IMG/VR virus record: IMGVR_UViG_3300008255_000036
Span: 1-42,829 of that record
From: a virus
Lineage: Duplodnaviria; Caudoviricetes
Reading direction: 5' to 3' (one strand)
Length of the DNA stretch: 42,829 bases
The translations under genes and the position numbers were made by a program. Below the pieces are notes generated by a model. It worked only from the letters and a program-made list of their open reading frames with translations, searched no databases and was not told the DNA's origin. Positions 9,357-17,911 of this stretch are shown one piece after another. The stretch's first letter is position 1; each line of letters begins with the position of its first letter.

Positions 9357-9545
9357 ATGCCTACAATGGAGCAACCGCACTACTGCTCCACGTGCAAAAA
9401 GCAAACACCTCATGGTTTAATCGAAGAATCATACCTGTTTGCCGGGCGCACATTTCATTTGTTTGTCCATTTCTGCATCACATGCTGCAACAATCGTACG
9501 AGCATGTGGATCAGAAGGGACTTGGCCGTCCGAAAGGACGTGTAG
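9357..9545 (+). CDS. Small zinc-ribbon protein (62 aa)
   Basis: CSTC...CITC; strong SD GGAGGTG upstream, unusual for this genome. Confidence 0.55.
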   Translation: MPTMEQPHYCSTCKKQTPHGLIEESYLFAGRTFHLFVHFCITCCNNRTSMWIRRDLAVRKDV

Positions 9546-9613
9546 AAGGAGGTGATCAGTATCTCCGTGACTGGCTCCGACACGGTTAGCGCAAGCAATC
9601 GGAGCCCCCTCAT

Positions 9614-9684: not shown

Positions 9685-9857
9685 CGACAGGAAAGATGTC
9701 AGGAGCAAGAGTCATTCTCTTGTTCGCGGGCTATACTCGTCTACTAACTGATTGTCATGACGGTCGATCTGTAGAGCCAGGGTATGCAATGCGACGTAAG
9801 TTCGTTGTGTTTCACAGGGGCATCCATGCTGACTATGATGGTTTGGTCAGCGCATAC

Positions 9858-9930
9858 GCGTCGGTGCAAAACGGATAAGCTCTCAGCCTCTAAGCTGAGG
9901 AATATGCAGGTTCGACTCCTGCCCGACGCT
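9858..9930 (+). tRNA. tRNA-Arg(TCT)-derived gene with a 6-nt anticodon loop (CTCTAA)
   Basis: Acceptor GCGTCGG/CCGACGC, T arm GCAGG-TTCGACT-CCTGC, Arg-like GGATA D loop but weak D stem, anticodon stem CTCAGC/GCTGAG. Confidence 0.65.
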
Positions 9931-9937
9931 CAAATAA

Positions 9938-10016
9938 CGATTTCATTCCTGGCGATTCTTGGCATGTCAGCCCCTCCTTCTGACGTTTTGCTGTAGAGTT
10001 GCTGGGAATGAGGTCG
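9938..10016 (+). ncRNA. Long G-U-rich hairpin with C-rich (anti-SD-like) loop
   Basis: 21 contiguous pairs GATTTCATTCCTGGCGATTCT/AGAGTTGCTGGGAATGAGGTC including 6 G-U (indicates plus-strand RNA); apical loop CCCCTCCTT. Confidence 0.6.
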
Positions 10017-10031
10017 GTATGTATCGACCAG

Positions 10032-10176
10032 TTGAAAATAGACACACAGGAACGAAGACCGGCGGGTCAGCCGACACCAAACGCTTGTGGCGATTTGGAC
10101 CGCAACATGGCGAATAGCTGTACAACCATGTTCATAGGGGAATTGTACATCCCGGTTCCTGTGCGTGTATTTTCAA
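10032..10176 (+). ncRNA. Multi-branched structured RNA with candidate kissing loops
   Basis: 22-bp closing stem with 2 mismatches enclosing four hairpins; loops TGTACAA (10119-10125) and TTGTACA (10143-10149) are complementary. Confidence 0.55.
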
Positions 10177-10190
10177 TACAGCAATAAAAA

Positions 10191-10466
10191 TATAGGGGAA
10201 AATAAAGTCTCCCCGGTGTTCCAACGACGGACCGACGCGCATGTGCGCCAGGTGAAGATGGAATTACTCAACCCTCGCGAGTGTGGAAATGAATCGGCCA
10301 CCATTAGTAAGCGGGGCTCTCCGATACCTCTGGTAGTAATAACGACCTGAAAGGGGGAAACGGATCAAGAGTTAAGTTTCAGGGGCCTTCCCGGTTGCAA
10401 TACCGGGACGGGTACGAGAATGGGCGAGTAGCCATGATTCCGAGTGTTTTCTGCCCCCGACCTATA
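10191..10466 (+). ncRNA. Putative large structured RNA domain
   Basis: Ends pair (TATAGG/CCTATA, GGAAAATA/TGTTTTCT); internal hairpins such as CCCGGT-TGCAAT-ACCGGG; no credible ORF. Confidence 0.4.
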
Positions 10467-10486
10467 CAGGAAGGGCATCGGACAAA

Positions 10487-10518
10487 CCAAAAACCCCGCG
10501 TAAGCAGGGTTCTCGGTG
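10487..10518. terminator. Possible intrinsic terminator between the convergent RNA units
   Basis: AACCCCGC-GTAA-GCAGGGTT hairpin preceded by an A-run (U-tail on the minus strand). Confidence 0.4.
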
Positions 10519-10672
10519 AATCTTATGCCGTTTTTCTTCGGCAAGGTAGTTTTTCCAGTAGGAACATGGCCGTACGATCTTTACAACAGGAACGAAGTAA
10601 CGAAGAGACGATAGCTCTGGCTCCTCGTGAAAAGTTCCCTTTATTGCATTGTTCGCTTTGACAGTGTTCTTG

Positions 10673-10744
10673 TTCCGGGGAACGGAATCGAACCGCTTTT
10701 CTGTGGGTTATGAATCCACCGAGATGCCATTTCTCCACCCCGAG
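10673..10744 (-). tRNA. Initiator-type tRNA-Met(CAT)
   Basis: CTCGGGG/CCCCGGA with C1:A72 mismatch, loop TTCATAA, stem GTGGA/CCCAC (A-C mismatch next to the loop), T loop TTCGATT. Confidence 0.85.
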
Positions 10745-10754
10745 ATACCTTCGT

Positions 10755-10784
10755 ATTATACAATAGAACAAGAACATTTGTCAA
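10755..10784 (-). promoter_or_regulatory. Consensus sigma70 promoter for tRNA-Met
   Basis: TTGACA-N18-TATAAT 10 nt upstream of the tRNA; perfect DnaA box TTATCCACA at 10798-10806. Confidence 0.8.
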
Positions 10785-11156: not shown

Positions 11157-11860
11157 TATAGTGTTTTTTGTTGCCTACCAGGAAGTGTCAAAAGAAGTGC
11201 CGGGAAGTGTTGATATGAAGTGTTCAAACGGTGTATTGCCCCTAGTGTCTACACCGTGTCCAGGTCACTGTGTAAAACATAGTGTCTACAATGCGTCCGC
11301 AGGACAAGGTGTCCCACCGTGTAAACATAGTTCCCCCGACACCGTGTGCACCGTGAAACATAGTGTTCTGCCCCGTAGGGGCACCATGTAAAAATACCCT
11401 GTGATTGTGAGGGTTAATCCGTAGATTAACTTGATCAACAAAGTGATACCCCTTACCTTCTTTCTCAATTTCTAGGTTTTAAGTCTTGTACCTTCGGGCT
11501 CTTGAGCAGAGTGTTTGACACGGTGGGACACAGTCCCCCTGCTTCGCGGGGGATGACAACGTGTACAATTTGTATACACCATGTATCAACACTATGTATA
11601 CACTATGCAAGCGATACTGTGTACTACACTATGTATATACACTATGTATATACACTATGTGTATACAGTGGTATGAACACTAGCACGCGCTTCGCTTGGA
11701 ACACAATAGAGCGCCCTGTCGGGCGCATCAATCATGGGGCTCACGCCCCAACAAAATGGAGCGCTTCGCGCACACTTTGACCCGCGCTACCGCGCGGGGA
11801 CACGGTGTGGACACTATGATGGGGACAGTGTTTGGCACAATGTTTCACATGAAACACAAT
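11157..11860. repeat. Symmetric array of short repeats (CATAGTGT-like on the left, ACACTATG on the right); candidate genome-end/packaging site or origin
   Basis: CATAGTGT at 11278 and 11359, variants at 11157, 11241, 11326 and GAAGTG x4; reverse complement ACACTATG at 11589, 11600, 11626, 11639, 11652, 11811. Confidence 0.75.
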
Positions 11861-17557: not shown

Positions 17558-17911
17558 ATGCAAGACCTACAGGAAGTTTTCAATCGAATACAGAAGAACA
17601 AGGAGAAGCTCAAAGATCTCAAGGGCGCATTCACTGAGGCACTGAAAAGCTCAGAATCCTACGTGGAAGCAGCGGAAGCCGTAAAAGTGGTAAAGGAGAA
17701 GCAGAAACGTATAGAGAAGGAATTGAAGCAACACTTTTCTGGTGAGTTCACACAAATGGAAGATTTGAAGATTGATATTGCAAGTGACCAGGAGGTGCTC
17801 AACGATATTGCCATAACCATGGTAATGAAAGGAGAGGGAGTATCTATTGTAGACAAGTACGAAAACGAATACGAGCCGCTCTTTAAGATAAACTTTAAGA
17901 AGGTAAAATAG
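17558..17911 (+). CDS. Coiled-coil protein resembling a conserved Parcubacteria hypothetical (117 aa)
   Basis: MQDLQEVFNRIQ...DLKIDIASD...DIA...KGE.V...D.YENEYEP.F...FKK; recalled family, not searched. Confidence 0.65.
   Translation: MQDLQEVFNRIQKNKEKLKDLKGAFTEALKSSESYVEAAEAVKVVKEKQKRIEKELKQHFSGEFTQMEDLKIDIASDQEVLNDIAITMVMKGEGVSIVDKYENEYEPLFKINFKKVK

Follow-up and report, generated by a model that had tools for sequence, protein, structure and literature searches.

A covarying, pseudoknotted RNA family located ahead of the small terminase gene in phages of likely Patescibacteria, and a putative singleton long-stem RNA element beside it

Two RNA-like elements were found next to each other in the non-coding region ahead of the small terminase gene of a phage genome. 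The stronger result is one of them, hereafter the neighbour RNA, which belongs to a well-supported and apparently undescribed RNA family. The other, hereafter the orphan, is a singleton with two non-random features. An earlier sequence-only reading of this DNA described the orphan and passed over the adjacent 10270-10475, which is conserved and covarying and shares a motif with the orphan.

The window, meaning the whole stretch of DNA analysed (42,829 bases), represents a complete phage record that has terminal repeats, and it may originate from an aquifer (groundwater) metagenome. The phage encodes the small and large terminase subunits and a portal; its minus-strand genes include those for the large terminase, the portal and the major head protein. 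Its host is likely Candidatus Magasanikbacteria (Patescibacteria) and thus an ultra-small bacterium, judging from one gene (17558-17911, plus strand). The encoded protein had 15 other relatives among the matches listed, with identities up to 72%, and 5/5 of the named relatives among them were Magasanikbacteria. One terminase relative was located on a 4.8-kb contig of a MAG labelled Omnitrophota, into which the contig was possibly co-binned. The orphan belongs to a variable, mostly non-coding tRNA/RNA island that precedes the small terminase gene. On its plus strand are genes for tRNA-Asn and tRNA-Gln and an irregular tRNA-like gene; the minus strand has one for tRNA-Met. The main features of this part of the island are as follows.

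9811..9839, plus: promoter-like site, matching 10/12 of the consensus (consensus match only)
9858..9931, plus: irregular, amber-suppressor-like tRNA-like gene with a 6-nt CTCTAA anticodon loop
10031..10177, plus (inferred): orphan structured element, 147 nt, a five-way junction as predicted by folding
10195..10214, minus: terminator-like hairpin between the orphan and the neighbour RNA, facing the minus strand
10270..10475, plus: neighbour RNA, about 200 nt, non-coding, with a pseudoknot; conserved and covarying, 12 distinct members
10490..10543, no single strand: terminator-like hairpins 3' of the neighbour RNA, one with a minus-strand U-run and two on the plus strand
10672-10744, minus: tRNA-Met, from the tRNA call
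10755..10784, minus: perfect sigma-70-type promoter ahead of tRNA-Met, converging on the island, from the promoter scan

Transcription of the tRNA-like gene, the orphan and the neighbour RNA could start from the promoter-like site at 9811-9839. The tRNA-like gene has a long anticodon stem and resembles an amber suppressor that is one base short. TAG is the stop codon of 10/39 long ORFs, and thus there was no sign of genome-wide amber read-through.

Related loci were gathered through terminase relatives, in overlapping sets of 11, 15 (one being this phage), 1 and 50. The neighbour RNA was conserved in 8/11 of the first loci, as four distinct sequences. In the remaining three, either the upstream region was present without a match (L003) or the upstream sequence was short (L004 and L005). 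The family had 12 members: this phage, L001, L002, L006, L007, L017, L044, L051, L092, L110, L161 and L165. The terminases of the carriers were 55-64% identical to that of this phage. The RNA was not found in L003 or L048, nor, in a set of 38 loci, in those with a terminase identity of 51% or below; 3/38 of that set matched, all in the close group. The family model R2 had no match in 20 relatives of the MAG with L092. The RNA is fixed in its place upstream of the small terminase gene.

The structure of the neighbour RNA was derived from an alignment of eight members. It has five helices, two of which cross a third and form a pseudoknot. In the alignment, 99.2% of the cells pair, and 19/31 pairs change on both sides. 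None of the measures was reached by any of 500 shuffles, a figure which is not a p-value, because the structure was read from that same alignment and the sequences are related. The four members outside the alignment keep the first crossing helix, as judged by eye. The G-U pairs fix the predicted RNA on the plus strand. One of its arms, typically 30-32 nt long, expands to 46, 125, 131 and 272 nt in some members, and the RNA is expandable to over 400 nt. Rfam 15 gave no match to 10270-10475, either at the gathering threshold or at E 10, and none at E 10 to the members in seven loci.

An AGNNA motif was present in a conserved single strand of the neighbour RNA in 12/12 members, and it precedes a UGNNA motif found in the arm in 9/12. 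According to passages of PMC3664808, motifs in this order are characteristic of the double T-loop platform, to which tRNA elbows bind. The likeness to double T-loop RNAs concerns the neighbour RNA and not the orphan, whose unpaired regions contained no AGNNA/UGNNA-type motif. The neighbour RNA differs from them in having no Rfam match to these RNAs and in the wide separation of its two loops in the secondary structure. Binding of tRNA elbows through such a platform is best treated as a lead. Neither the neighbour RNA nor the orphan was described in the literature searched. The neighbour motifs were not found in the searchable supplements of PMC10690425, which reports 10,000 viral candidate RNAs; its other files may list the family. 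The more solid result of this analysis is a covarying family of ~200 nt, which precedes the small terminase gene within a clade of phages that likely infect Patescibacteria, and it opens RNA biology in phages of mostly uncultured hosts.

The orphan folds into the following predicted parts, all given on the plus strand.

10031..10053, plus: 5' arm of the closing stem (inverted repeat, 91% complementary)
10155..10177, plus: 3' arm of the closing stem (inverted repeat, 91% complementary)
10060..10073, plus: hairpin 2, 4 bp, pair probability 0.6
10077..10098, plus: hairpin 3, with A10093 bulged, pair probability 0.97
10104..10132, plus: hairpin 4, 7 bp with a 15-nt loop, pair probability 0.75
10138..10153, plus: hairpin 5, 4 bp with an 8-nt loop, pair probability 0.87
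10119..10125, plus: kiss half in loop 4, TGTACAA with the palindrome TGTACA, unpaired in the fold
10143..10149, plus: kiss half in loop 5, TTGTACA with the palindrome TGTACA, unpaired in the fold
10049..10059, plus: block 1 of the motif shared with the neighbour RNA, weak alone (37/85,638 positions score as well)
10108..10118, plus: block 2 of the shared motif, the GGCGAATAG motif conserved in the neighbour family; best genome match after the family member

The closing stem has 21 pairs and two mismatches (G10041.G10167 and A10044.C10164), and its pair probabilities are about 1.0, with 0.71 and 0.90 for the terminal pairs. The sequence-only reading had drawn this stem around four hairpins, CGGC/GCCG, AACATGG/CCATGTT and GGGA/TCCC among them. 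All the helices that it stated were recovered, within the bounds 10031-10177. The minimum-energy fold had -55.1 kcal/mol (z -4.40), and 0/200 shuffles were as stable. Without the closing stem, the interior had a z of -0.34 and was equalled by 163/500 shuffles; when the closing stem was kept and the interior shuffled, the total energy was matched by 844/3000. The folding z-score of the orphan thus exceeds chance because of the 21-pair closing stem, the interior being like shuffles. The five-way junction that had been proposed is present in the minimum-energy fold, and a junction of at least five helices also arose in 469/3000 (16%) of the interior shuffles. Since both the interior energy and the helix count arise in shuffles, the junction is a plausible prediction and no more.

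The loops fared differently in the shuffles. Loops 4 and 5 are complementary over 7 bp, confirming the earlier claim of a 7-bp match containing the self-complementary TGTACA. In interior shuffles refolded around the intact closing stem, a loop-loop complement of 7 bp appeared in 1/3000 and one of 6 bp in 2/3000, and a kiss of at least 7 bp occurred in 0.1% of 200,000 shuffles of the loop letters. The long stem and the kiss are real, non-random features. Among the reading frames at the orphan, none was seen as a credible ORF: one, of 62 aa and TTG-started, overlaps it, and another, of 61 aa, begins in its last 13 bases. A scan of 10031-10177 against Rfam 15 gave no match at the gathering threshold or at E 10, in agreement with the claim that it resembles no recognised ribozyme or riboswitch.

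The minus strand of the orphan folds slightly better (z -5.58), with the A.C mismatch of the closing stem becoming a G-U pair, and the two strands fold alike, both as RNA and as DNA. The strand is therefore undecided by the folding energies. The context favours transcription from the plus strand, because the upstream tRNAs and the promoter-like site are on it, because two minus-strand terminator-like sites shield the orphan, and because the motif shared with the neighbour family is oriented as in that family. The scan lists no plus-strand terminator before 10514, and a minus-strand transcript from the promoter at 10784 meets two terminator-like hairpins before the orphan.

The fourth loop of the orphan carries the conserved GGCGAAUAG motif of the neighbour family. 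This likeness was noticed after the fact, and it was scored with a profile of 11 members, L051 being cut off at that place. Block 2 was matched or beaten by only 2/85,638 genome positions, namely itself and the neighbour RNA, with or without L092, the member most like the orphan, in the profile, and block 1 without L092 was matched by 165/85,638. The orphan thus has the 3' module ending in GGCGAAUAG, with a strong block 2 and a weak block 1. Aligned to the 3' module of L092, the two blocks kept their order around a 48-nt insert. This alignment scored 39, which was reached by 2/3000 shuffles and 3/2106 genome windows. The pseudoknotted core of the neighbour RNA (5' hairpin, crossing helices and T-loop arm) is lacking from the orphan, as judged with R2. 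Run with filters off over the orphan, R2 gave a best overlapping match of 2.2 bits (E 0.58). R2 does not call the orphan, which is therefore not a member of the neighbour family; it shares one loop with it, either by descent or through a common partner.

Homologues of the orphan were searched with a one-sequence covariance model (R1), which found none in 21, 19 and 38 related loci, nor in 5 + 3 whole records. Its best match was to the closing stem only (L092, E 0.043). The orphan was also not found in 11/11 other distinct carriers of the neighbour RNA; as a one-sequence model is insensitive, it is 'not found' rather than 'absent' in the relatives. nhmmer against the relatives found no homologue, BLAST against phages was empty, and BLAST against plasmids gave two chance matches at E 5. 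Pattern scans of viral contigs returned 18, 38, 29 and at least 119 loci, and the orphan fold was seen in none of the matches listed. The largest scan spanned 29/64 parts; from its at least 119 loci, 100 went to the model and all 119 matches to a script. No RNA run was listed with the orphan sequence. Of two DNA runs, one may be the source, and the other had two identical 151-nt pieces, at a depth of 2. raiA gave no match. The earlier proposal of a novel phage ncRNA is thus upheld as far as the absence of an Rfam match, the setting in a phage tRNA island and the non-random loop complement go; no homologue was found, and a conserved family was not established. One locus, L129, had both blocks beside a tRNA cluster, antisense to the cluster and without the orphan fold, and was rejected as a chance match.

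At the equivalent variable site, relatives had unrelated elements of 100-140 nt closed by long stems, all on the minus strand.

L044 4858-4752, minus: long-stem-closed element
L051 422-305 and 944-844, minus: long-stem-closed elements
L092 1775-1675, minus: long-stem-closed element
L006 7068-6931, minus: long-stem-closed element
L165 about 1320-1230, minus: long-stem-closed element

Those of L044, L051, L092 and L006 had no sequence and no clear kiss in common with the orphan. The site has the look of a cassette for accessory RNAs.

The same data could be read at the DNA level, as a short insertion with terminal inverted repeats (MITE-like or protein-binding), in which TGTACA is a DNA site or a chance repeat. 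The terminal inverted repeats of such elements are present, the only non-random parts are the terminal repeat and a 7-bp inner one, and the likeness of the two strands and the failure to find the orphan in the other carriers point the same way. TGTACA occurs 16 times in the window (one of these being the repeat of the terminal overlap), and it is frequent in the nearby non-coding region of the relatives. However, the element is present as a single copy in the phage, with no target-site duplication seen at its ends, and no other contig of the source sample was listed at 80% likeness, where contigs show presence and not absence. An insertion accounts for the stem and for the patchy presence, but not for the shared loop, and the GGCGAATAG block in the orientation of the neighbour RNA is left unexplained. 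We consider an insertion of this kind unlikely.

The orphan probably serves this one phage as a small accessory RNA. Our preferred reading, which we hold tentatively and place somewhat short of an even chance, is that it is cut from a tRNA transcript, closed by its own kiss and displays the loop of the neighbour family. It would be transcribed together with the plus-strand tRNAs and cut out at the long 21-pair stem by RNase III-type cleavage. Processing of long closing stems by RNase III is established. Loops 4 and 5 would then close on each other within one molecule, and the closed RNA would display the same GGCGAAUAG loop as the adjacent neighbour RNA, serving as an add-on or a decoy for a partner that reads this loop. 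It would likely have originated by duplication or recruitment of the 3' module of the neighbour family. Several observations count against this reading: no homologue was found, the interior is no more stable than shuffles, R2 misses the orphan, block 1 is weak and the minus strand folds slightly better.

Whether the kiss would form within one molecule was considered with a rough helix model. With intact helices, a near-coaxial kiss spans 44-50 A, compared to a linker reach of 35-42 A. While all pairs of helix 4 are formed, the 5-nt linker cannot bridge this distance, except where the kiss is bent to about 90-120 degrees; it does reach across once the helix loses one or two of its terminal A-U pairs. 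Pairing within one molecule would therefore be geometrically tight, and possible if helix 4 frays.

The strain on a coaxial kiss within one molecule also bears on a different reading, in which the loops pair between molecules (4-5, 4-4 and 5-5) to give dimers, rings or a small cage. A palindrome of 6 bp is present in only 3.1% of 7-mers, and therefore a kiss need not be palindromic. Because TGTACA is palindromic, the computed duplex energies of the three pairings are alike (-5.8 kcal/mol for 4-5, -5.2 for 5-5 and -6.4 for 4-4), and the whole of loop 4 paired with itself reaches -9.3 kcal/mol. Palindromic loops bridge OLE and GOLLD chains, kisses which passages of PMC12286853 back with structures and palindrome switching, and a GUAC palindrome is proposed for s2m dimers in part of PMC12291111. 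For the orphan, however, no homologue was found that would show a switch from palindrome to palindrome, the palindrome has only two G-C pairs, and fraying of helix 4 relieves the strain within a single molecule. A chain of 147 nt also has far fewer possible contacts than the cage formers of 550-833 nt in Table 1 of PMC12990946. Multimerisation of the orphan rests only on the palindrome; it is unsupported, not refuted. We regard self-association as improbable, and assembly into a defined ring or cage as slightly more so.

The sequence-only reading had compared the orphan to GOLLD, ROOL and the phi29 pRNA. The location in a phage tRNA island agrees with the first two, while the size and the Rfam models do not, and there was no Rfam match to the phi29 pRNA. 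The phi29 pRNA is like the orphan in being a small phage RNA with two complementary loops, placed in a non-coding region upstream of packaging genes. Its fold is built on a three-way junction, its loops are not palindromic, and the phages that it serves are protein-primed and phi29-like. The phage studied here differs in having terminase subunits and a portal, and the orphan, not found in close relatives, lacks the pRNA-type conservation across a phage group. GOLLD and ROOL are likewise phage-encoded, near tRNA genes and joined by kissing loops, some of them symmetric or palindromic (passages of PMC12286853 and PMC12990946), and exposed complementary, palindromic loops are present in the predicted fold of the orphan. 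They differ in being covarying families of 550-833 nt with 7-18 intermolecular motifs (part of PMC12990946), compared to a 147-nt singleton that falls short of about 500 nt and is not called by their covariance models. Natural RNA oligomers above dimers are rare, the examples in the same part of PMC12990946 being pRNA, for which a tetramer and a pentamer are noted, ROOL and GOLLD.

The tRNA island, and the amber-suppressor-like tRNA gene upstream of the orphan, would also suit a self-cleaving ribozyme that trims the tRNA transcript. HDV-like theta ribozymes occur in phage tRNA islands, often beside suppressor tRNAs (sections of PMC10879173), and one lenient HDV-type fold could be drawn over 9996-10126. 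The descriptor used for this was lenient; it gave five matches here and 0-9 in 14 control pieces, which is background. The candidate has a P2 mismatch and offers no CC in register for P1.1. In theta ribozymes the cut falls no more than 5 nt from a tRNA, and a nested double pseudoknot is required (PMC10879173, the same sections), whereas the candidate begins at 9996, 65 nt after the end of the tRNA-like gene at 9931, and no nested double pseudoknot with P1.1 and a catalytic C in J4/2 was found in the orphan with this descriptor. As the strong closing stem would also have to open, and no Rfam ribozyme matched even at E 10, we consider a ribozyme very improbable.

An antisense or sponge RNA directed against a phage or host transcript or protein would find company in the island, where other regulator-like pieces lie, such as the hairpin with an anti-Shine-Dalgarno loop at 9942-10012. 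The orphan had no antisense match of at least 11 nt elsewhere in the phage, its lone 12-nt direct repeat (10586) is at chance level (0.7 expected), and its GGA triplets are in stems or at their edges. Such a role appears quite improbable.

A bolder reading joins both elements into a two-part RNA system beside the terminase promoter of Patescibacteria phages. The neighbour RNA, with its AGNNA/UGNNA pair of T-loop motifs, would dock to tRNA elbows or have a part in DNA packaging, and the 147-nt derivative of this phage, keeping the GGCGAAUAG loop, would polymerise by palindromic kissing into a ring or cage whose chains are much smaller than those of ROOL or GOLLD. This is a long shot. A 147-nt chain with two palindromic loops would be an inexpensive way to learn if phage RNAs of much smaller size can assemble.

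Further elements were observed around the two RNAs. At 9543-9607 (plus), the stop codon of a small ORF is followed by a long Shine-Dalgarno-like run without a start codon and then by an H-type pseudoknot, as drawn by eye; the same order, with a different sequence, was seen in L051 at about 610-560 (minus). This piece could be a 5' stabiliser of a downstream RNA or a read-through signal. The long hairpin at 9942-10012 (plus) has a 9-nt loop that is an anti-Shine-Dalgarno sequence and can pair with the run at 9545-9553 (computed, -13.6 kcal/mol). The long-stem element of L006 has a pyrimidine-rich run similar to this loop.

A second conserved non-coding block, at 10540-10620, follows the terminator, with a CGTA-containing motif and then ATAGCTCT. 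Equivalents were seen in L001, L002, L006, L007, L092, L110 and L161, some relatives showing a -35/-10-like spacing on the plus strand. The block may be a promoter-operator or a packaging-related DNA site. At 11560-11690, a run of short ACACTATGTATAT-like repeats and inverted repeats lies in a long non-coding stretch, possibly an origin or packaging region, and TGT/ACA-rich tracts similar to it were seen in relatives. In L161, an island gene at about 4030-3650 (minus) resembles by eye the Magasanikbacteria-type small protein encoded at 17558-17911 (plus) in the window. In L165, the large terminase frame at about 2950-2680 is apparently interrupted downstream of its conserved N-terminal motif by an insertion that may be an intein.
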